A stretch of 64,000 bases of DNA from an uncultured Clostridia bacterium (GCA_944382715.1 CALWNC010000001.1:118872-182871), one strand, 5' to 3'; shown: positions 707 through 59,876, numbered from the stretch's first letter. Numbers and translations: made by a program. Notes: generated by a model not told the origin, from the letters alone.

Positions 707-2983
707 TTATATAAATTTTTTATGTTTTCCTTTTCCTCCATGAACTTGAACTTTAAAAGTCTTAGACTTTGTTTTTTTTGTGCTGAATACTTTATTTTTA
801 TTGTTTTCAAGAGCATTATCAGAGATATCTCTGTGAAAATTAGCAAGCTCAAAGTCGATTCTTCTTAAAGCAATGTCCGTGCTAACAACTCTTATTTGAA
901 TTTTATCACCTATTCTATAGGTTTTTCCAACGCCTCTAATCAGGTAATGGTTTTCGTCATAATCATACTTTCCCTTTGGAAGTCTAGAAATATTAATAAA
1001 TCCCTCTATTGTATTATCTAACTCAACATAAATGCCATTTTCAGTAACACCTGATATTGTTCCATCAAAAACTTCACCAATCTTGGTCTGCATGTATTCG
1101 GTTTCCTTTTGAGCATCAACAGTTCTTTCAGCTTCTTCTGCTTGGCGTTCCATTGTGCTAGATCTTTCAGCAGACCTTTGAACAAAATCTTGAAATTCAC
1201 TAATTTTTTTATCAGTTAAACTATTTTCTAAATAAGCTGATATAATTCTATGAATTGAAAGATCAGGATATCTTCTAATTGGAGATGTAAAGTGACAGTA
1301 ATCTTTTAAAGCCAAACCAAAGTGACCTAGATTTTCGGTTTCATATCTGGCCTTTTGCATACTTCTAAGCATAACCTTAGAAAGTGCAGTTGAGTAATCT
1401 TTTCCCTTACTATTTTTAAGCAAAACCTGAAAATCCTTAGGTTTTGGCTCTTTCCCTTGAGCAGTGAATTTAAGACCCAGACTATTTGCAAAAGTTCTAA
1501 ATTTTTGTACTTTTTCACTTGTCGGAATTTCATGAATTCTATATACAAATGGTAAATTCAAACTATCGAAGTGTTTTGCAACAACTTCATTTGTAAGTAC
1601 CATAAATTGTTCTATAATTCTGTCAGCCATTTCGCGTGGCTTTTTATAAACATCAATAACCTCTCCACTATTATCAAGCTTTATAAATGGTTCTGGAATA
1701 TCAAAATCAAGTTCCCCAGCATTTTCTCGTCTAGTGATAAGTATTTTTGCTAACTCCTGCATTTGAAACAGCATTGGAACAATCTTTTCATATTCTTTGC
1801 TCAGTGCCTTATCACCATTTAAAATTTTGGTTACTTTTGTATAAGTCATTCTAAAAGACGATTTAATTATACCTTTATGAATTTCATAATCAACAACTTT
1901 TCCATTGCCATTAATTGTCATTTCTACTGCAAGTGTAAATCTGTCCTCATTTGGATTAAGGGAACAAATTCCATTTGAAAGCACTTCTGGAAGCATTGGC
2001 AATACATGGTCAGGAAAATAAACTGAAGTACCCCTTTTAAACGCTTCTTCGTCAAGTTTTGAGTTTTCTTTAACATAGTGAGAAACATCTGCAATATAAA
2101 CACCTAAATAATAAATGTCATCTTGTTTAGTAAGTGAAATGGCGTCATCAAAATCTTTTGCATCTTCCCCATCAATTGTAATAATTAATCTATCTCTATA
2201 ATCTTTTCTTCCGTCTAAGTTCTCTTTTTCTATTGGAATATTAACCTTTTGAGCTTCTTTCAAAACTTCTTTTGGAAACTCCTCAAACAAATTAAATGAG
2301 CGAATAATTGAAAGTGTAGTAACCTTAGCATCACTAGGGTCTCCTAAAATTTCTCTAACCCTTCCCCTTGCCATCTTTAATTTTGAAGGATAATCTAAAA
2401 TATCAAGCACAACTTTTGTATTATTCGTTGCTCCATTTAAATCATTTGGTGCGACAAAAATGCTATCAGTAAATCTCCTATCATCAGGCAAAACTGTTGC
2501 AATTCCATTTTGATTAATACTCAAAATGCCAACAACAACTTCATATCCCCTTTTTAAAATCTCTAAGACTTTACCTTCTCGTTTGCCACGAAAGGCTTGA
2601 GGCAATTCTTTTCTATATTTTCTTTCCTTGCCAAAAACACCAACTTGAACAATAACTGTATCTCCATGACAAGCATCATTCAAATTTGCCTGAGAAATAA
2701 AAATGTCATCGTCTTTTGAAGCGCCTATTTCTCTTGCAAATGCATAATCTTTACTTGTTCCCAGAATTGTACATTTTACTGTATAAAAATCTCTATTTAC
2801 TAGAAAAGAGTTACCTTTAAGCTCTTTTATTTTTCCAAGTTTAACAAGTTCTTTTATTGCTTTTGATAGAGTTTTATAATCAAACCCATATTTTAAGCCC
2901 GTAAAATTTGCAATATCTTCAAGCTTAAACTTGTCCTTATTCATATCCAATATTTTCTTATAAATGGTATCAATAAAATTCAT
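707..2983 (-). CDS. rnr: Ribonuclease R (RNase II/VacB family) with C-terminal S1 domain and basic tail
   Basis: 758 aa with RNB-domain motifs (IDGEDAKDFDDAIS, HFGLA...YCHFTSPIRRYPDL) and an S1 domain. Conserved rnr-smpB synteny. Confidence 0.93.
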   Translation of the reverse strand: MNFIDTIYKKILDMNKDKFKLEDIANFTGLKYGFDYKTLSKAIKELVKLGKIKELKGNSFLVNRDFYTVKCTILGTSKDYAFAREIGASKDDDIFISQANLNDACHGDTVIVQVGVFGKERKYRKELPQAFRGKREGKVLEILKRGYEVVVGILSINQNGIATVLPDDRRFTDSIFVAPNDLNGATNNTKVVLDILDYPSKLKMARGRVREILGDPSDAKVTTLSIIRSFNLFEEFPKEVLKEAQKVNIPIEKENLDGRKDYRDRLIITIDGEDAKDFDDAISLTKQDDIYYLGVYIADVSHYVKENSKLDEEAFKRGTSVYFPDHVLPMLPEVLSNGICSLNPNEDRFTLAVEMTINGNGKVVDYEIHKGIIKSSFRMTYTKVTKILNGDKALSKEYEKIVPMLFQMQELAKILITRRENAGELDFDIPEPFIKLDNSGEVIDVYKKPREMADRIIEQFMVLTNEVVAKHFDSLNLPFVYRIHEIPTSEKVQKFRTFANSLGLKFTAQGKEPKPKDFQVLLKNSKGKDYSTALSKVMLRSMQKARYETENLGHFGLALKDYCHFTSPIRRYPDLSIHRIISAYLENSLTDKKISEFQDFVQRSAERSSTMERQAEEAERTVDAQKETEYMQTKIGEVFDGTISGVTENGIYVELDNTIEGFINISRLPKGKYDYDENHYLIRGVGKTYRIGDKIQIRVVSTDIALRRIDFELANFHRDISDNALENNKNKVFSTKKTKSKTFKVQVHGGKGKHKKFI

Positions 2984-3068
2984 AACTTCACCTTTAATTA
3001 ATTATATATTATTAAATAAAAAAAATAAACAAAATTAACGCATTATTCACTTTAATTTTACACACATA

Positions 3069-3097
3069 TTGACTTTATTTACAAAAAAAAATATACT
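3069..3097 (+). promoter_or_regulatory. Putative sigma-70 promoter of mgtE
   Basis: TTGACT (3069-3074), 17-nt spacer, TATACT (3092-3097). Confidence 0.5.
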
Positions 3098-3129
3098 ATT
3101 ATTGTGAAAAATTATTTAGGAGGAAAAAA

Positions 3130-4818
3130 ATGCTAAAACAACAAATCGAAGAACTATTAAAAGACAAGAACTTTAATGAAATAGAAAAATTGTTGGAAAA
3201 AAGCGAAATAAGTGAAATCTCAAAAACAATGAATCAACTTGATAAAAATTTACTTTTACAACTTCTTCCTAAAATATCCCCCGAGCAAGCTGCTGAAATT
3301 TTTCTAGTTTTAGGGCAAGAAACTCAATTATTTCTTGTAGAAGAACTTAGCTATGTTGAATTTAAGCAAATTGCAAATGAATTACTTGAAGGCGATGCAG
3401 AAAATGCGTTAAGCGAAAATGTTTTTAATGAAATTATTTTAAAGGCAAAAACAGAAGATAGAAATGATAAACTTGTTGAAATTATTGATAAATTAGAAAA
3501 TAAGCAATTTGCCAGTTTAAAACCATTACTTGCCGAACTTGAACCTATTGACATTGCTAAAATTTTTGAGCAAGTAGATGACACTAAAATTGCACTGCTT
3601 TTTAGGTTACTTCCAAAAGATTTGGCCAGTGAGGTTTTTGTTGAAATGAACAGCGATGACCAGCAAGTTCTCATTAAATCATTTACCGATAAAGAGCTTG
3701 AATATATTGTTAATGACCTCTTTATCGACGATACCGTTGACATTATTGAAGATATGCCATCAAATGTTGTTAGGCGAATTTTATCACTTTCCAGTCCAGA
3801 AACTAGAAATACTATTAATAAACTCTTAGGATTTCCAAAAGATTCAGCTGGGAGCATTATGACAACTGAACTTGTTACACTTAGAGAAAATATGACAGTT
3901 TACGAAGCTCTTAAAAAAATTCGCAAACAGGCACTCGATAAAGAAACTATTTACACATGTTATGTTACTGATGACCAAAAACATTTGCTTGGAATTGTCA
4001 CAGCTAAGGATCTAATTTTACACGAGCCAACTGATATAATATCTTCATTTATGGACGAAAACATAATTTATGCTACAACTAAAACAGATAAAGAAGAAGT
4101 TTCAAATTTACTTTCAAAATATGATATGATTGCAATTCCGATTGTTGACAATGAAAATAGAATAAATGGTATTGTCACAGTCGATGATGCTATTGATGTT
4201 ATTCAGGAAGAAGCAACAGAAGATATCAATAAAATTTCTGCTATTATTCCAACCTCAAAGCCATATCTTCAAACTTCCGTATGGCAATTATTTTTATCTA
4301 GACTACCATGGCTATTAATTTTACTCCTTTCTGCAACATTTACTGCACTTATTATAAATACATATGAAAGTACATTGAATAGTATAAGTACATTACTTTT
4401 TGCTTGTGTACCTATGCTAATGGGTGCTGGTGGTAATGCTGGGAGTCAAGCTGCTGTTACTGTAATTCGTGCACTATCTTTAAATGAACTTGAATTTAAA
4501 GACATTTTTAAGGTTATTTGGAAAGAAATTAGAGTTGCTATAATCTTATCTCTTACATTATCTATTTGTTGTTTTATTAAACTTTTATTAATTGATAATT
4601 TAATATTTGGTTATGATTATAATATTCAACTATCATTTGTTGTTTCACTCGCACTATTTGCCACTATTTTTATTGCAAAACTTATAGGTTGTTGCTTACC
4701 ACTACTAGCAAAAAAAATTAAACTTGATCCAGCAGTAGTAGCCAGTCCATTTATTACTACAACAATTGATGCTATTTCACTTATAATATTCTGCCAAATA
4801 GCAATTGGCTTACTATAA
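3130..4818 (+). CDS. mgtE: Magnesium transporter MgtE (long N-terminal extension)
   Basis: 562 aa with MgtE N-domain, tandem CBS region and a C-terminal 5-TM domain carrying the GAGGNAGSQ motif. Strong SD (AGGAGG). Confidence 0.9.
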   Translation: MLKQQIEELLKDKNFNEIEKLLEKSEISEISKTMNQLDKNLLLQLLPKISPEQAAEIFLVLGQETQLFLVEELSYVEFKQIANELLEGDAENALSENVFNEIILKAKTEDRNDKLVEIIDKLENKQFASLKPLLAELEPIDIAKIFEQVDDTKIALLFRLLPKDLASEVFVEMNSDDQQVLIKSFTDKELEYIVNDLFIDDTVDIIEDMPSNVVRRILSLSSPETRNTINKLLGFPKDSAGSIMTTELVTLRENMTVYEALKKIRKQALDKETIYTCYVTDDQKHLLGIVTAKDLILHEPTDIISSFMDENIIYATTKTDKEEVSNLLSKYDMIAIPIVDNENRINGIVTVDDAIDVIQEEATEDINKISAIIPTSKPYLQTSVWQLFLSRLPWLLILLLSATFTALIINTYESTLNSISTLLFACVPMLMGAGGNAGSQAAVTVIRALSLNELEFKDIFKVIWKEIRVAIILSLTLSICCFIKLLLIDNLIFGYDYNIQLSFVVSLALFATIFIAKLIGCCLPLLAKKIKLDPAVVASPFITTTIDAISLIIFCQIAIGLL

Positions 4819-7049: not shown

Positions 7050-7670
7050 TTATTTAGAGTAAAGTTCGATGATAAGGTGTTCAGCAATTGTAAGGTCAAT
7101 ATCATCTCTTGCTGGTAGGCTAATTACCTTTCCTGTAAGTTTTGATGAGTCGAATTCTAGCCACTTTGGTACTATAACCCTTGCATCTTTTACACCAGCA
7201 AATAATTGACTCTTTGCACTGGATTCTTTTACAGAAATTACATCACCAACTTTTACTTGGTATGATGGAATATTTACGCGTTTACCATTTACCAAAATAT
7301 GTGTATGGTTTACAATTTGTCTTGCCTGTGCACGACTTGCACCTAGTCCAAGTCTATAACATACATTGTCTAATCTTCTTTCAAGTAAACTGAGCATTAC
7401 TTCACCAGTTTTTCCTTTCATTCTTGCTGCTGCTTCATAATATCTTCTGAATTGTTTTTCAAGGAGTCCATATGCTCTTTTTACCTTTTGTTTCTCACGA
7501 AGCTGTACTAAATATTCAGTTGGCTTCTTTCTGCTATTTGGATGTTGACCTGGTGTTGTTGGTCTTCTATCGATAGCACATTTTTTAGAAGTACATCTTT
7601 CACCTTTAAGGAAAAGTTTTGTGCCTTCTCTTCTACATAGTCTGCAATCTGCATTTATATACTTTGCCAT
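7050..7670 (-). CDS. rpsD: 30S ribosomal protein S4
   Basis: 206 aa; N-terminal Cys cluster CRLCRREG...C.SKKC and an S4 RNA-binding domain. Confidence 0.96.
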
Positions 7671-7685
7671 TGTTTTCTCCTAATA

Positions 7686-8087
7686 TTAAACTCTTCTTGG
7701 TTTTGGTGGACGACAACCATTGTGTGGAATTGGTGATACATCTCTAATCATTGTTACTTCAAGATCTGCAGCTGCAAGACTTCTTACAGCAGATTCTCTA
7801 CCATTTCCTGGTCCTTTTACATAAACTTCGACTGATTTTAGTCCATATTCTTTTGCTAATTTAGCAGCTTTTTCAGCAGCTTGTCCAGCTGCGAATGGTG
7901 TGCTTTTTTTACTACCCTTATATCCAAGAGCACCTGCTGAACAAGCAGCAAGTGCATTTCCTGCAACGTCTGTAATTGTTACAATTGTGTTGTTGAATGA
8001 TGATTGAATATATACTCTACCCTTATCAACGCTTGTTGTAATCTTACGCTTTTTTGTTGCAGTTTTCTTCATTTTCTTTTCTGCCAT
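7686..8087 (-). CDS. rpsK: 30S ribosomal protein S11
   Basis: S11 family sequence (IVTITD..GN...[13 protein letters not shown]-like). Start moved to the second ATG (MAEKK), which is correctly spaced from AAGGAAGG. Confidence 0.93.
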
Positions 8088-13579: not shown

Positions 13580-14143
13580 TTATTTCTTACCTGAAGATGT
13601 CTTTTTGATTTCTTTTCTACGAACATGCTCATTGGTATAGTAAATACCATAACCATGATATGGTTCGACTTTCTTAATAGCTTTAATATCTGCTGCAAAC
13701 TGACCAACCTTTTCCTTGCTGATACCTGCAATAACCATCTCAGTTGCAGATGGACATGTTACTGTTAATCCCTCAGGGATTTCAACATTAACTGGGTGTG
13801 AAAATCCAATATTTAAGGTGATTTTATTGCCTTGAACTTGAACTTTATAACCAACGCCATTTACAGAAACGGATTTTGTAAAACCTTCTGAAACACCCTT
13901 AATCATATTTGCAAGCAATGCACGATATAAACCATGTTTTGCATTTGTATCAGCTAATTCGTCATTAGCAACAAGTAAAATTGAATCTTTTCCTTCATGT
14001 TCTCCCCTAGTCACAGAAACATTTCCAGTAATTTGTTGAGTTAAAGTTCCTTTTGATCCAGTAACTGTAACAAAATTAGTGTCAGAAACATCGACTGTAA
14101 CATTTGCAGGAAGAACGATTGGAGCTTTACCTATACGACTCAT
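13580..14143 (-). CDS. rplF: 50S ribosomal protein L6
   Basis: [12 protein letters not shown] start with two L6 repeats. Confidence 0.95.
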
Positions 14144-14155
14144 ACTCTTTCCTCC

Positions 14156-30911: not shown

Positions 30912-30997
30912 AATGGTATAACAACACTTTTTCAAGTGATATTATCAAATTAACAAGTCCATAATAACACAAAAATATTATTATGTCAAGTGTTTTT

Positions 30998-31020: not shown

Positions 31021-31079
31021 TTGAATCAGTAGCACATACATATCATCGTATAAATCTCTACTATTTTCACAATAATTGT

Positions 31080-34001
<2,922 letters not shown>

Positions 34002-34210
34002 AAATTGATTTACTCTACTTGATACATACGTGCTTGTAACTTGCATTATGCAAGTTGCCTTTGCATTCTTTGTTAATTAACTCAGCGTAATTATAATAAT
34101 AATTATTTCAAAACGGTTGTTTTCAAATTTGTACTATCATTGCGTATTACACTATTATATTTGATTAACTCTGATTCTCGTTATATACTATATAATATAT
34201 AATCTTTAAA

Positions 34211-34233
34211 TAATATGCAGTTGTCAATGTGCG
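34211..34233 (-). other. 5' half of the 23S processing stem
   Basis: Reverse complement CGCACATTGACAACTGCATATTA pairs with the transcript of 30998-31020. Confidence 0.7.
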
Positions 34234-34380
34234 AAATTGAATTAAACAAAAAAATTCTGGTATACTTAGTTTATTACTATGATTAAATAAATAGTCATAA
34301 AATTAACTTCATATCCAGAGGTATAATTGTTATACATGGTTTAATTCAATTGTTGTTCACTTTTTGTTGCGAACATTTAC

Positions 34381-34409
34381 ATAGTAGCACTTTAAAAATA
34401 CTTTGTCAA
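34381..34409 (-). promoter_or_regulatory. 23S-5S proximal promoter (P2)
   Basis: Minus strand: A/T UP-like tract, TTGACA (34404-34409), 17 nt, TACTAT (34381-34386). Confidence 0.65.
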
Positions 34410-34514
34410 CAATTTTTTAAAAATTTTTTAATTTTTTTTAATAAATTTTTAAAATTAATTTTTTGCAAATAATATTTTCAAAATACCAGTTGTTTTAAGT
34501 CTATACTAAACTTG

Positions 34515-34556
34515 CGACAACTCTTATAAGTTATCACAAACAAAATATAATGTCAA
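34515..34556 (-). promoter_or_regulatory. 23S-5S distal promoter (P1) plus conserved downstream box
   Basis: TTGACA (34551-34556), 17 nt, TAACTT (34528-34533). The box CTTATAAGAGTTGTCG (34515-34530) is identical to the one upstream of 16S. Confidence 0.6.
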
Positions 34557-34663
34557 TAGATTTTTTAAAATTTTTTAAAAAAATTTATTTTTTTTATTTA
34601 GGATAATTTTTTTAGTTGAAATTATTTATAAATATCTTTATAATAGTAAATAAGGAGAAAATA

Positions 34664-35527
34664 ATGAGTACTAATCAGCATTTATATAATATAGACCTAC
34701 CATCAGATGAAGCATTGCTCTCTTCCAGTGAAAACATTATGATAGTCGAGGCAATTTTTAGTCAAGCAATAAAAAAGTACCTTGAAATCTTTAATAAAAG
34801 AGAAGTGCCACTGTCATTTTTTAAATTTTATTTTGAAGAGATCAGAAATTACAGTTATATGTTTAGAAAACAAACTAAAGAGTTTTTTGATGCATACATC
34901 AAGGCAAGCCCAGATTTTGAATCTATTGCAGAAATTTATAATAGCTCATATTTTTCTCAGTCAGAAAGTATAATTACAAAGGGAGATGAAAAATTTCTAC
35001 TGCTAAAGTCATTAAATGTAATAGACTATCTTGACGATATGTCAAACAACTCAAATAAAAGTACAGAGTCGGCAATTCAAAATATAAAAAAGATAACCGA
35101 GCACATTAATGATTCCGATGAACTTATTTCCTTTGGGAAAAAGTATGAAAATTTTATGATTTCTGAGATTGTACGACAAAATGAATTTAATGGCTCATAT
35201 AATGGAAAATCAATATTAGTTTTAAATGTTTACGACAACTCTGAGTCACCACACATTGTTTCTGCTACAAAGCGAGCTGAAAGACTTACAAGTGAAAGAA
35301 TAAACATTTCAACCAAAGCGGGAAAAGTTACAAAAATTGTTATACCTAAGCTTAAATTGCCATCAAGTTATCCAAAGGCAGTTTCAAGCAGATACGATTC
35401 AAGATATAAAGCAAGAAACCTTGTTAGTGCTTCAAGACAAATCTTGATACTTAGTGACTTAAAAATAAACGGAGTCGCTTACTCAACAAACTTTATTGAG
35501 AAAAGAAAAGCGGCAAATGAATATTAA
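34664..35527 (+). CDS. Hypothetical 287-aa protein
   Basis: AAGGAGA SD before the ATG at 34664 (MSTNQHLY...). No recognisable motif. Confidence 0.7.
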   Translation: MSTNQHLYNIDLPSDEALLSSSENIMIVEAIFSQAIKKYLEIFNKREVPLSFFKFYFEEIRNYSYMFRKQTKEFFDAYIKASPDFESIAEIYNSSYFSQSESIITKGDEKFLLLKSLNVIDYLDDMSNNSNKSTESAIQNIKKITEHINDSDELISFGKKYENFMISEIVRQNEFNGSYNGKSILVLNVYDNSESPHIVSATKRAERLTSERINISTKAGKVTKIVIPKLKLPSSYPKAVSSRYDSRYKARNLVSASRQILILSDLKINGVAYSTNFIEKRKAANEY

Positions 35528-38991: not shown

Positions 38992-39068
38992 TGGTGGAGA
39001 TAATCGGATTCGAACCGATGACCCCTTGCTTGCAAGGCAAGTGCTCTAGCCAACTGAGCTATACCCCC
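38992..39068 (-). tRNA. tRNA-Ala (anticodon UGC), CCA encoded
   Basis: GGGGGTATAGCTCAGTTGGCTAGAGCACTTGCCTTGCAAGCAAGGGGTCATCGGTTCGAATCCGATTATCTCCACCA folds as a cloverleaf with the G3:U70 Ala identity pair. Confidence 0.93.
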
Positions 39069-39150: not shown

Positions 39151-39243
39151 ATATGATATATAGATTAGATTTTTTCAAATCCTAACTTGCATTGTACTAA
39201 AAACACAATATTTAAGTTGTCACTTACAACACAATGCTCCTAT

Positions 39244-39272
39244 ATAATAACAAAACAGTCAATAATTGTCAA
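39244..39272 (-). promoter_or_regulatory. Promoter of the tRNA-Ile/tRNA-Ala unit
   Basis: Minus strand: AAAAAAATTG-TTGACA (39267-39272), 17 nt, TATTAT (39244-39249). Confidence 0.65.
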
Positions 39273-44939: not shown

Positions 44940-45015
44940 TGGTTGCGGGGGGAGGACTCGAACCTCCGACCTTTGGGTTATGAGCCCAACGAGCTGCCAA
45001 CTGCTCTACCCCGCG
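44940..45015 (-). tRNA. Initiator tRNA-fMet (anticodon CAU)
   Basis: CGCGGGGTAGAGCAGTTGGCAGCTCGTTGGGCTCATAACCCAAAGGTCGGAGGTTCGAGTCCTCCCCCCGCAACCA has the C1:A72 mismatch and three G-C pairs closing the anticodon stem. Confidence 0.92.
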
Positions 45016-45058
45016 ATATATATTATAAGTAATAGAGTTTATCACTTACAACATTATT

Positions 45059-56301: not shown

Positions 56302-57825
<1,524 letters not shown>

Positions 57826-57992
57826 AAATTCATAACTCTAATAGACATTAATACTGACTAATAAAGTTTGTATTTTAAGTATGTAATAATTTCTCAAGAA
57901 ATTAACAAGAATTTTATTTATAAAACCTTGTACATTTCAATATATTAATTTGTCAATTTGCGATTTGCTCCACATTTTTGTGGAACAGACTC

Positions 57993-58021
57993 AATATATC
58001 AAATTTAAAATATGTTGTCAA
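57993..58021 (-). promoter_or_regulatory. 16S proximal promoter (P2)
   Basis: TTGACA (58016-58021), 17 nt, TATATT (57993-57998), with a T/A UP-like tract upstream. Confidence 0.65.
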
Positions 58022-58097
58022 GCATTTTTTAAAAAATATTTAAAAAATTTTGAAATATTTTAAATTAATATATTGTTGCCAACCAAATACATTTGTT

Positions 58098-58139
58098 CGA
58101 CAACTCTTATAAGATACTACAAAATAAAATACTTGTCAA
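58098..58139 (-). promoter_or_regulatory. 16S distal promoter (P1) plus conserved downstream box
   Basis: TTGACA (58134-58139), 17 nt, TATCTT (58111-58116). Box CTTATAAGAGTTGTCG at 58098-58113. Confidence 0.6.
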
Positions 58140-58262
58140 CACTTTTTTTAAAAAAAATTAAAATATTTTTAAGAAAGTTTTTTATTGACATAAAAAGCAT
58201 AGAATTAAATAAAATTCTATGCTTTTTTAGAATTATAAAGGTTTATTTTTTATGTAATTCAA

Positions 58263-59876
58263 TTAATCGCCAAATCCTCCTTCAAGATTTTTCATTGTTT
58301 CGCGTTTAAATGAATTTGTGGCGTTATTTGTATACGACTTATCAGAAATTTTCATTGTATCATTAATTGCAGTATTTACGGCACTATCAATATTTTTTTC
58401 TTCCACATTTTCATAAGGATAGATAACTTTTAGTGCACTTTTAAATTTATCTATTGAGATTGGCTTGCCTGTCATATTTAAATTTTGATTGCGAAGCTCT
58501 GAGTAAACGACACTTGACATAACTGAGCGTGTAAGTTTATTAGCAACGGTTGCCCATCTAGTCTGATAGGCATCTTCAAGGACTTGGAAATCCTCAAGCG
58601 AAGTTTGAGCAAGTTCATCAAGTTCTCTATAAATATCCACAACATAACTTCGTGCAGAATCTTTAAAATCCAACTTTTTGTCGGACAGATAATTCTTTTT
58701 CAACATCTTAATTCTTTCACTTACAAATTTATCATCAATCCCACCAAGCATACAAAGAGATAGCAAAAATTCAAAGGACGACCCATAAGGAACTTCTGGC
58801 TTAACTTGATAAATATCAGCTGGAACATCATAAGATTTAAATATATTTTTAAGTGTATGAGCGGCATAATTACATTTATACTTATCACCTACAAGGTCTT
58901 TAACAACCTCTTCAGAGATATTGTATTTTTCTTCAAGCCCAAGTAATTTAATAATTTTTGAGTAGTTCCCTGAACTGTCCTTACCAAAAGTTTCACCGTA
59001 ATAATCACCATCAATACTCTTTAGTGCATATTCATCATTTGGATAAAAAAACATTGCGTCGTCTGAAACTTTAATTTTTTTGCCTAAGCAGTTTTTATCC
59101 GATAAAGGGACTAAGCAAAATGAATAAGTTCTCTTATCTTCCTTTCCTTCATCAACACGATCCCAACAAGCATCAGATAGGTACAACCCATGAATATCAT
59201 ACTTGTCATCGTCAATATAAACCAAATTATTTTCGTGATTAGCCAAAAATCTATCATTTTTATTATAAGTTTTGCATGCCTGAGTATAGCATTTTATACC
59301 TACGGCGTTGCAAATGTACTCCATAAGTTGAGCATAACCCACACAAACAATATCATCACCATTCATAAGAGCAATAATATCTCTTGATTTTGCCTTATTT
59401 TTTTCATTCTCATGATATATTTTACGCGTTAAAAAGTCATAAATGATAAGATACTTTTCAAATGGTGAGAGTGGTTCTTGTTTAATTGTATCAATTAAAT
59501 CATTGAGTTTTTTTTGAGCTATAATTACTTCATTAATATTATAATTTTTATCAATACCACCATCAAAATTTAAATTTATTTTATCTTTTTTTAAATTATC
59601 TTCAAGTCTTAAAAATTGCCACATATCCGTAGCTGTAAAATGTTTACTAGCAGCCTTAATGCCTATTGAAACATTATAGCCTGCATTTTTGACTTCTCTA
59701 GCAAATGAAACAATTTTTTTTATAGTTTCAGAGTCATAAATGTTAAGATTAAAAACAAGGTTAACATTAGAATTTCCTGAACTATTACCGTTAACCATTT
59801 CTACAGAAGCATCTGCAAGAGAATTAATTTCAATATTTTTAATGTTAAGAGTCTCAAAATCTTTCTCGTCACTCAT
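58263..59876 (-). CDS. Hypothetical 537-aa protein, paralog of 40907-42178; putative transglutaminase-like Cys-His-Asp core
   Basis: DDIVCVGYAQLMEYICNAVGIKCY ... NHENNLVYIDDDKYDIHGLYLSDACWD. GAGG SD present. Confidence 0.6.
   Translation of the reverse strand: MSDEKDFETLNIKNIEINSLADASVEMVNGNSSGNSNVNLVFNLNIYDSETIKKIVSFAREVKNAGYNVSIGIKAASKHFTATDMWQFLRLEDNLKKDKINLNFDGGIDKNYNINEVIIAQKKLNDLIDTIKQEPLSPFEKYLIIYDFLTRKIYHENEKNKAKSRDIIALMNGDDIVCVGYAQLMEYICNAVGIKCYTQACKTYNKNDRFLANHENNLVYIDDDKYDIHGLYLSDACWDRVDEGKEDKRTYSFCLVPLSDKNCLGKKIKVSDDAMFFYPNDEYALKSIDGDYYGETFGKDSSGNYSKIIKLLGLEEKYNISEEVVKDLVGDKYKCNYAAHTLKNIFKSYDVPADIYQVKPEVPYGSSFEFLLSLCMLGGIDDKFVSERIKMLKKNYLSDKKLDFKDSARSYVVDIYRELDELAQTSLEDFQVLEDAYQTRWATVANKLTRSVMSSVVYSELRNQNLNMTGKPISIDKFKSALKVIYPYENVEEKNIDSAVNTAINDTMKISDKSYTNNATNSFKRETMKNLEGGFGD

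Follow-up and report, generated by a model that had tools for sequence, protein, structure and literature searches.

Unlinked 16S and 23S-5S rRNA genes of an uncultured Clostridia lineage appear to be read from their own tandem sigma-A-type promoters

This work concerns the control regions of the ribosomal RNA (rRNA) genes in a 64,000-nucleotide stretch of DNA from an uncultured Clostridia bacterium (GCA_944382715.1, CALWNC010000001.1:118872-182871), referred to below as the window. The window has a G+C content of about 30%, and its rRNA operon is fragmented: according to Rfam and ARAGORN, the 16S gene lies 24 kb from the 23S-5S pair, the spacer tRNAs form a separate unit, and all stable-RNA genes are on the minus strand. 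Upstream of both the 16S and the 23S gene two promoter-like sequences are arranged in tandem, P1 farther from the gene and P2 nearer to it, and both P1s contain the same 16-nt sequence, CTTATAAGAGTTGTCG, here called the box. The stable-RNA genes annotated by the two programs are as follows.

34001..31078, minus strand: 23S rRNA, probably read from 23S P1 and P2
30911..30796, minus strand: 5S rRNA
57825..56302, minus strand: 16S rRNA, probably read from 16S P1 and P2
39150..39074, minus strand: tRNA-Ile
39068..38992, minus strand: tRNA-Ala
45015..44940, minus strand: tRNA-Met

The original prediction had placed TTGACA promoters with 17-nt spacers, P1 and P2, upstream of 23S and of 16S, with a further one upstream of tRNA-Ile/Ala, and had pointed to unusual TA(A/T)CTT -10 hexamers at the two P1s. 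The minus strand was read directly and every promoter was then re-extracted. Hexamers and spacers were found exactly as described, including TAACTT at the 23S P1 and TATCTT at the 16S P1.

34528..34556, minus strand: 23S P1 core, with TTGACA at 34556-34551, a 17-nt spacer ending in TGa, and the -10 hexamer TAACTT at 34533-34528
34381..34409, minus strand: 23S P2 core, with TTGACA at 34409-34404, 17 nt, TGc (extended -10), and TACTAT at 34386-34381
58111..58139, minus strand: 16S P1 core, with TTGACA at 58139-58134, 17 nt, and TATCTT at 58116-58111
57993..58021, minus strand: 16S P2 core, with TTGACA at 58021-58016, 17 nt, TGa, and TATATT at 57998-57993
39237..39272, minus strand: tRNA-Ile/Ala promoter, with TTGACA at 39272-39267, 17 nt, TG-extended TATTAT at 39249-39244, ATAGGA, and a predicted +1 G at 39237
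34557..34586, minus strand: UP-element-like phased T/A tracts of 23S P1, AAATTTTTTTAAAAAATTTTAAAAAATCTA, resembling the UP consensus
58140..58169, minus strand: UP-element-like T/A tracts of 16S P1, …TTTTTTTTAAAAAAAGTG
34515..34530, minus strand: box CTTATAAGAGTTGTCG at 23S P1, made up of CTT of the -10 hexamer, the discriminator ATAAGA, a predicted +1 G (34521) and TTGTCG
58098..58113, minus strand: box CTTATAAGAGTTGTCG at 16S P1, an exact copy, with a predicted +1 G at 58104

All five stable-RNA promoters have the form TTGACA-17-TAnnnT, in agreement with sigma-70/sigma-A promoters in their hexamers, in their spacing (16-18 bp) and in keeping A-11 and T-7. The distance between P1 and P2, 147 bp at 23S and 118 bp at 16S, lies within the range of tandem rrn P1/P2 promoters (~100-150 bp). 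T(n)A(n) tracts had been said to abut the -35 hexamers. Such tracts are present, at about -40 to -60, where they resemble the UP-element consensus AAAWWTWTTTTNNNAAA (PMC2412878) as in a UP-element rRNA promoter, but they do not abut the hexamers, as 3-4 nt intervene (GTG, TTG, TGC, TCTA). Taken as a module of A/T tract, 3 nt, TTGACA, 17 nt and TAnnnT, this arrangement occurs seven times in the window against 0.11 expected, and five of the seven are stable-RNA promoters. The discriminators are ATAAGA at the P1s and GTAAAT and GAGTCT at the P2s, with one to three G/C among six positions and five of six A/T in ATAAGA, and the tRNA-Ile/Ala promoter carries ATAGGA(G), the clade-consensus form of the P1 discriminator. 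The GC-rich stringent discriminator of the E. coli type was not found at P1 or P2 of the window, and the AT/purine-rich composition argues against one.

The same control regions were read in related uncultured species, whose loci are designated L with a number. The 16S leaders of L108 and L109 were taken from contigs that end in 16S and carry homologues (51% and 43%) of a 537-aa protein encoded upstream of 16S in the window, and the 23S leaders of L111, L114 and L116-L121 were found via 54-80% homologues of a 287-aa protein encoded beside the 23S promoters. A scan of JGI metagenomes with the 287-aa alignment gave three short loci, and L111 was the only one of use. The closest SecY proteins, 80-89% identical, belong to metagenome-assembled genomes that carry the NCBI labels 'Clostridia bacterium' or 'bacterium'. 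Identity of the nine related species to the window is 91-95% in 16S and 91-96% in 5' 23S, and they keep the P1+P2 layout, with P1 and P2 at like distances from 16S and 23S. P1 of 23S lies 537-660 nt upstream of the gene in L111, L114 and L116-L121, with a spacer that is not conserved, and P2 of 23S lies 379-431 nt upstream in all relatives; P1 of 16S lies 304-329 nt upstream in L108, L109, L114, L118 and L119, and P2 of 16S 194-207 nt upstream in all seven species read. When the relatives are anchored on TTGACA, the -35 hexamer is invariant, the -10 hexamer keeps TAnnnT, and the layout of T-tract, A-tract and (G)TG is kept, while the 17-nt spacers vary. All P1 -10 hexamers are weak (TAACTT, TATCTT, TATTTT, TATTGT, TAAAGT, TATTCT, TAAATT, TAAGTT), and those of P2 are near consensus and preceded by TG. 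Among seven metagenome contigs of the window's own species (L001-L007), the 537-aa gene is identical and the 16S P1 with its box is invariant. Since the hexamers are conserved while the spacers are free to vary, these are, by comparative criteria, real sigma-A-type rRNA promoters.

Two relatives depart from the tandem pair. L120 carries a single promoter upstream of 16S (13813-14145), of the P2 type, and no P1, and its 23S gene keeps a box-like P1 (TAAATTATAAAAGCTGTCG) and P2. L114 has three tandem promoters at both 23S and 16S (2540-3352 and 7106-7753), built from a repeated module of ~124 nt (AAAAAACTTTTAAAAAAGTGTTGACAAA...); judged by their sequences, the repeats clearly reflect ongoing promoter-module duplication or conversion in the clade.

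The presence of an identical 16-mer at both P1s was confirmed, and it is far above chance: exact copies of CTTATAAGAGTTGTCG occur in the window at the two P1 sites only, matches with up to three mismatches number five against 0.62 expected, and it is the sole complex word of at least 12 nt common to the 23S and 16S upstream regions. The proposal that it spans the end of the -10 hexamer, the discriminator and the first transcribed bases agrees with the register given above, with +1 as predicted. An exact scan of 185,579 species genomes returned 98 matches, where chance would give ~277 for a random 16-mer; those that were read were all single-copy, and none stood in a promoter context. They are mostly runs common to several unrelated taxa, many of them one conserved, coding-looking run in unrelated Gammaproteobacteria, and viral contigs gave two matches. 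Nor does the 16-mer behave as a common dispersed repeat, with its two P1 copies in the window and with unrelated single matches below expectation elsewhere, the window's own genome outside the window not being covered by the scan. Thus, as far as these matches indicate, CTTATAAGAGTTGTCG is not a widespread element of rRNA genes, nor is it a dispersed repeat.

The transcripts predicted from these promoters were folded over 40 nt, starting from the seventh nucleotide after the -10 hexamer, and the minimum free energy (MFE) of each sequence was computed, with shuffled sequences and other promoter-like sites as controls. The following hairpins are predicted in the window, with z-scores between -1.6 and -4.0.

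34489..34521, minus strand: 5'-terminal hairpin of 23S P1, with GUUGU...ACAAC as outer and AAGUUUA/UAGACUU as inner stem, MFE -7.7 kcal/mol
58075..58104, minus strand: 5'-terminal hairpin of 16S P1, GUUGUCGA...UUGGCAAC, -10.8 kcal/mol, z -3.4
34355..34374, minus strand: predicted +1 G (34374) and 5'-terminal hairpin of 23S P2, boxB-like, GUUCGC...GUGAAC, -7.1 kcal/mol, z -2.8
57967..57986, minus strand: predicted +1 G (57986) and 5'-terminal hairpin of 16S P2, boxB-like, GUUCCACA...UGUGGAGC, -11.6 kcal/mol, z -4.0

The seventh nucleotide after the -10 hexamer is G in 14 of 15 P1 leaders and 14 of 16 P2 leaders. This predicted +1 is also the first base of a hairpin in 14 of 15 P1 leaders (p ~4e-11) and 15 of 16 P2 leaders (p ~6e-12), compared to 15% of shuffled sequences, with binomial p-values that overstate independence because the leaders are phylogenetically related. 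At 18 other strong promoter-like sites in the window, nucleotide 1 was paired in only three, with energies near zero. The stems have at least nine different sequences and show compensatory changes, for example GUUGU/ACAAC in the window 23S and L109 against GCUGU/ACAGC in L118, L111 and L114b; P2 leaders conserve a GTTC start, and their stems covary through compensatory changes. The tRNA-Ile/Ala leader likewise folds into a long stem that opens at the predicted +1, and from these foldings all stable-RNA transcripts appear to open with a G-initiated hairpin. Searches of both leaders against Rfam with E up to 1 yielded no meaningful family, the matches to S774, RT-6 and Atu_C9 being far below gathering scores. 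Because the predicted +1 G opens a hairpin in 14 of 15 P1 leaders, the 3' 7 nt of the box are best read as constrained as a stem arm in RNA, and the 5' 9 nt as the transcription-bubble part of the promoter. So read, the 16-mer does not stand as an element by itself: it combines the 3' part of the P1 core with the first seven transcribed nucleotides, GTTGTCG.

Downstream of the P2 hairpin, each leader contains a further constant block.

34221..34232, minus strand: boxA-like element GCACATTGACAA of the 23S leader, invariant in all nine 23S leaders
57950..57961, minus strand: boxA-like element GCAAATTGACAA of the 16S leader, with the core ATTGACAA invariant in all seven 16S leaders read

The general form of the element is GCA(C/A)ATTGACAA, or GCA(C/A)AUUGACAA in RNA. 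Its ATTGACAA core never varies across the clade, and in the 16S leaders there is slight variation in the preceding four bases (GCAA, GCAC, GTAA). In both leaders of every species the block lies 3' of the P2 hairpin, which is the order boxB then boxA. The boxA consensus GYTCTTTAANA is gamma-proteobacterial (PMC5725501). Compared to a boxA of this form, or GCUCUUUAACAA, placed after a hairpin, the hairpins are present and the matches to GYTCTTTAANA reach only 8/11 (23S) and 7/11 (16S); we infer the boxA assignment from these sequence features. A third promoter at the TTGACA of 34227 or 57956 was considered and rejected, as both lie inside the invariant boxA-like block and have no usable -10 hexamer (GATTAT, GTACAA). 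Separately, the last ~230 nt before 23S (window 34002-34235, minus strand) hardly change between species (…CATTGACAACTGCATATTATT…GAGAATCAGAGTTAATCAAATATAATAGTGTAATACGCA…); the promoter-proximal leader is far less conserved. This stretch is probably a processing stem or former internal transcribed spacer.

Taken together, we believe that each of the two unlinked units, 16S and 23S-5S, is probably read from its own sigma-A/sigma-70-type pair of promoters, as in classical rrn operons, and that the box is the 3' part of the P1 core joined to a hairpin arm. The anatomy of these sequences, their conservation across species and the covariation of the stems are observed directly. Each promoter has a 17-bp spacer behind a perfect TTGACA, with phased UP-like T/A tracts ahead of it; P1, upstream, has a weak TAnnnT -10 hexamer and P2, downstream, a near-consensus one extended by TG; and the G at 7 nt after the -10 hexamer is probably a GTP start. 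The two P1s probably descend from one ancestral P1, and in the window species the copies would have been kept near-identical by selection on open-complex and start-site properties, on the +1 G and on the hairpin arm. If Bacillus subtilis is taken as the model, it is the -10-to-+1 segment that would determine how sensitive these promoters are to GTP concentration. RppH of B. subtilis (BsRppH) needs at least two unpaired 5' nucleotides (PMC3997798), so a hairpin that opens at nucleotide 1 would block RppH-type conversion, and would in turn shield the leader from 5'-exonucleolytic decay (RppH, RNase J type). Alternatively, the hairpin may have a boxB-like role ahead of the boxA-like element.

To see how widely the box is kept, P1 cores were compared over 19 nt, made up of the -10 hexamer and the 13 nt that follow it.

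16S P1, window: TATCTTATAAGAGTTGTCG
16S P1, L108: TATCTTATAGGGGTTGTCG, box orthologue CTTATAGGGGTTGTCG
16S P1, L109: TATCTTATAGGAGTTGTCG, box orthologue CTTATAGGAGTTGTCG
16S P1, L114: TATTGTATATGAGTTGCCA, box orthologue TGTATATGAGTTGCCA
16S P1, L118: TATTCTCTAATGGTCGTGT, no box
16S P1, L119: TATTCTCTAGTGGACGCGC, no box
23S P1, window: TAACTTATAAGAGTTGTCG
23S P1, L118: TAACTTATAGGAGCTGTCA, box-like
23S P1, L120: TAAATTATAAAAGCTGTCG, box-like
23S P1, L111: TAAAGTATAGGAGCTGTTG, box-like
23S P1, L121: TAAGTTATAGGAGCGTTGT, box-like
23S P1, L114: TATTGTATACGAGTTGCCA, plus a second copy, box-like
23S P1, L116, L117 and L119: different sequences

Box-like cores (ATArGAG-YTGTC) were found at 16S in four species (window, L108, L109, L114) and at 23S in six (window, L118, L111, L114, L120, L121), and from this distribution we take the motif to be ancient, at both kinds of unit. 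Both units could be read in five genomes, and the two P1 cores match in two of them, the window (18/19) and L114 (18/19); in L118 and L119 they are unrelated (8/19 each). The interpretation in the original prediction was borne out in part. It suggested that the rrn control region was duplicated when the operon split; box-like cores at both units fit one ancestral P1, copied when or after the operon split, and common ancestry of the two P1s is plausible from their sequences.

That the box keeps 16S and 23S synthesis co-regulated was not supported. Since the P1 cores match in only two of the five genomes, the box does not appear to be a required coupling device, and what is constant across the two leaders of every species compared is the overall architecture and the boxA-like element rather than the 16-mer. 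This idea in full, in which a dedicated control box, kept by both loci ever since the split, has matched 16S to 23S synthesis through growth-rate, initiating nucleoside triphosphate (iNTP) or stringent control, would explain why 16 of 16 positions agree in the window amid diverged flanks (8/17 in the spacer). It also draws on the -10-to-+1 region as the known determinant of iNTP sensing in B. subtilis rrn P1, and on L114, where the 16S and 23S cores, alike at 18 of 19 positions, have a lineage-specific sequence of their own (TATTGTATAYGAGTTGCCA) and look like a co-evolving pair. We nevertheless regard it as unlikely: the 16S cores of L118 and L119 (TATTCTCTAATGG... and TATTCTCTAGTGG...) bear no relation to the 23S cores of the same genomes, L120 has kept a box-like 23S P1 without any 16S P1, the 23S P1s of L116 and L117, the nearest relatives by 23S, do not have the box, there is no GC-rich discriminator, and the 3' half of the box is accounted for by the hairpin arm.

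A broader joint reading can be built on the same sequences. In this clade, all stable-RNA units of a fully fragmented rrn operon (16S, 23S, 5S, tRNA-Ile/Ala and tRNA-Met) would have acquired one cassette, consisting of UP tract, TTGACA, 17 bp, TAnnnT, 6 bp and a G with an immediate hairpin; the 16-mer would be a co-evolving kinetic matching module kept identical in some lineages by concerted evolution, and the +1 hairpin a previously undescribed obligatory feature of stable-RNA transcripts. If this were true, the rRNAs of both subunits would respond identically to GTP or growth signals. We hold this reading to be quite doubtful.

The two boxes could also be identical because gene conversion or duplication of promoter modules took place recently between the loci; the identity would then be neutral and the box itself not under selection. 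L114 copies modules actively: AAAAAACTTTTAAAAAAGTGTTGACAAA recurs at four of its promoters, the two copies of its 23S P1 do not differ between a point well upstream of the -35 hexamer and one just past the -10 hexamer, and its 16S P1 matches its 23S P1 over ~60 nt. In the window, however, the identical patch is only 16 nt long and its flanks have diverged on both sides, which is too short for a normal conversion tract, and across species the box is kept at orthologous sites (17-18/19 in L108 and L109, 16/19 in L118 and L120) where the adjacent spacers and loops are not. Moreover, identity of P1 cores between species (14-18/19) is as high as within a genome, and the window's two copies are no more alike than its 16S core and that of L109 (18/19 in both comparisons), so recent conversion need not be invoked. 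This explanation is therefore one to which we give very little weight. An operator for a DNA-binding regulator overlapping the start is scarcely credible and was rejected, since the perfect 8-bp palindrome CTTATAAG of the two window copies is disrupted wherever a relative keeps the box (CTTATAGG, TGTATACG, ATTATAAA), and no candidate regulator was identified.

The preferred reading, two unlinked units with a classical pair each, can be set beside known systems. GTP-sensing rRNA promoters of Firmicutes were reportedly described by Krasny and Gourse in 2004. In B. subtilis, the rrn operons have P1 and P2 with a G at +1 and an A/T-rich discriminator, the -10-to-+1 region determines sensitivity to GTP concentration, and a similar sequence style with +1 G is present in Bacilli, Clostridia and Mollicutes (PMC3113569). 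The promoters described here resemble the B. subtilis rrn P1-P2 pairs (Sojka et al. 2011, PMC3113569) in being tandem sigma-A promoters with 17-bp spacers and TG or -16 motifs, in their A/T-rich discriminator and probable +1 G, and in having the -10-to-+1 segment as the conserved part. They differ from them in that the operon is split, with P1 and P2 at 16S and 23S each, in that the P1 -10 hexamer is markedly weak, and in that every transcript is predicted to open with a hairpin at nucleotide 1.

The same layout is known from the rrn operons of E. coli and B. subtilis, where P1, under the stronger regulation, has a P2 next to it (PMC3113569, PMC4696680), and the P1-P2 spacing of 118 and 147 bp here compares with ~120 bp in E. 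coli (PMC4696680). As in E. coli rrn operons, phased A/T tracts resembling the UP consensus lie upstream of the -35 hexamer, and downstream of P2 a hairpin is followed by a boxA-like sequence, as in the boxB-boxA-boxC leader. E. coli has a second boxA ahead of 23S. Unlike in E. coli, there is no GC-rich discriminator here, the boxA-like match is 7-8/11, Fis sites are not applicable, and a perfect -35 hexamer is combined with a 17-bp spacer, compared to 16 bp in E. coli rrnB P1.

Unlinked rRNA genes are widespread (Brewer et al., bioRxiv 10.1101/705046), and in Borrelia burgdorferi their transcription is independent but coordinated (PMC3037291). Similar to these cases, 16S, tRNA and 23S-5S form separate units here that need coordination, and the arrangement is one that occurs in small-genome, host-associated bacteria. 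Unlike in B. burgdorferi and the surveyed cases, the promoters of the separated units can be compared across a clade and show a shared architecture, with near-identical P1 cores in some species, and in the relatives the split amounts to only 3-4 kb and is made by opposite-strand genes. As for the hairpins, 5'-terminal stem-loop stabilisers are known from E. coli ompA and papA and from the B. subtilis aprE leader (reviewed in PMC3997798). The stems predicted here resemble them in opening at the 5' end or within 1 nt of it, a geometry that blocks RppH and 5'-end-dependent RNases; unlike those stabilisers, which belong to mRNAs, they would sit on rRNA and tRNA precursor leaders.

Besides the relatedness of the leaders mentioned above, several points weigh against the reading that we prefer. 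The -10 hexamer of 23S P1, TAACTT, agrees with TATAAT at only three of six positions and was consequently unlisted by a consensus scan, though it keeps T-12, A-11 and T-7 and is preceded by TGa. We infer the +1 sites from spacing and hairpin register, the z-scores of single-sequence folding are modest (-1.1 to -4.0), and RNAalifold predicted no pairs in nine box-type P1 leaders aligned with MAFFT, as the loops differ in length and left the 3' arms out of register; any function of the hairpins is speculative. In Bsu-rrnB P1, a T at -5, the third base pair past the -10 hexamer, is needed for GTP sensing, an effect that is context-dependent (PMC3113569), whereas the third base pair is A in the window and in most P1s of the clade. 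Since these promoters have neither the -5T nor a GC-rich discriminator, it is only plausible, by analogy, that they belong to the GTP-sensing class, and the E. coli stringent type can be excluded on sequence.

Two further promoters of the same style were observed at stable-RNA genes. In the 23S-5S spacer (window 30948-30989, minus strand), TTGACA at 30989-30984 is followed by 17 nt, TG-extended TATTAT at 30966-30961 and GTTAATT, 78 nt upstream of 5S. TTGACA-17-TA(A/T)AAT with GTTAATT recurs 75-80 nt upstream of 5S in L118, L119, L120 and L121, with spacers that are not conserved, and from this recurrence 5S probably has its own promoter in the clade. At tRNA-Met, TTGACA (45087-45082), 17 nt and TAGTAT are followed by a G as the seventh nucleotide and then by TTGT, as in the P1 box. 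The leaders of tRNA-Ile/Ala (39220-39231, minus strand) and tRNA-Met (45042-45053, minus strand) have an exact 12-mer, TGTTGTAAGTGA, in common.

The genes around the two units bear on the history of the split. The 287-aa open reading frame (ORF; 34664-35527, plus strand) is a divergent neighbour of the 23S promoters and is always so in the relatives. Its product has more than 160 homologues at 54-80% identity and no significant match in Pfam, NCBIfam or PDB. In L114, L118, L119 and L120, a gap of only 3-4 kb separates 16S from 23S downstream of it, and the opposite-strand 287-aa gene and small ORFs, among them a 67-aa ORF, lie in this gap. On this comparison the 16S/23S split is old in the clade and the 24-kb distance of the window a later rearrangement; the 287-aa gene may be a marker of the operon-splitting event. 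In L121 (11129-11702), an IS200-type Y1 transposase ORF stands beside the 287-aa/67-aa pair, with a match to Rfam STnc490 just at the gathering score. Directly upstream of 16S, the 537-aa ORF (58263-59876, minus strand) is lineage-specific. Its product has no significant match in Pfam, NCBIfam or PDB, with a weak hint of a transglutaminase core (E 5e-4) below the Pfam cutoff. The ORF ends in a terminator-like hairpin at ~58190-58225, which would insulate the 16S promoters from it.

How bacteria with unlinked rRNA genes balance 16S against 23S output is a real but modest question, and current models are not overturned by the system described here, which is an ordinary Firmicute-type tandem rrn promoter system, found in a new lineage whose operon is fragmented. 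What is refined is the meaning of the box: it unites the 3' part of the P1 core with the 5' arm of a conserved hairpin at +1, an arm that the first reading of the sequence had missed. For this one uncultured gut or rumen lineage the answer would be a simple one: each fragment has a copy of the standard rrn promoter architecture, identity of the P1 cores between units is optional, and the architecture and the boxA-like leader element are the parts that stay constant, while the G-initiated hairpin start may have a role in leader stability or antitermination.

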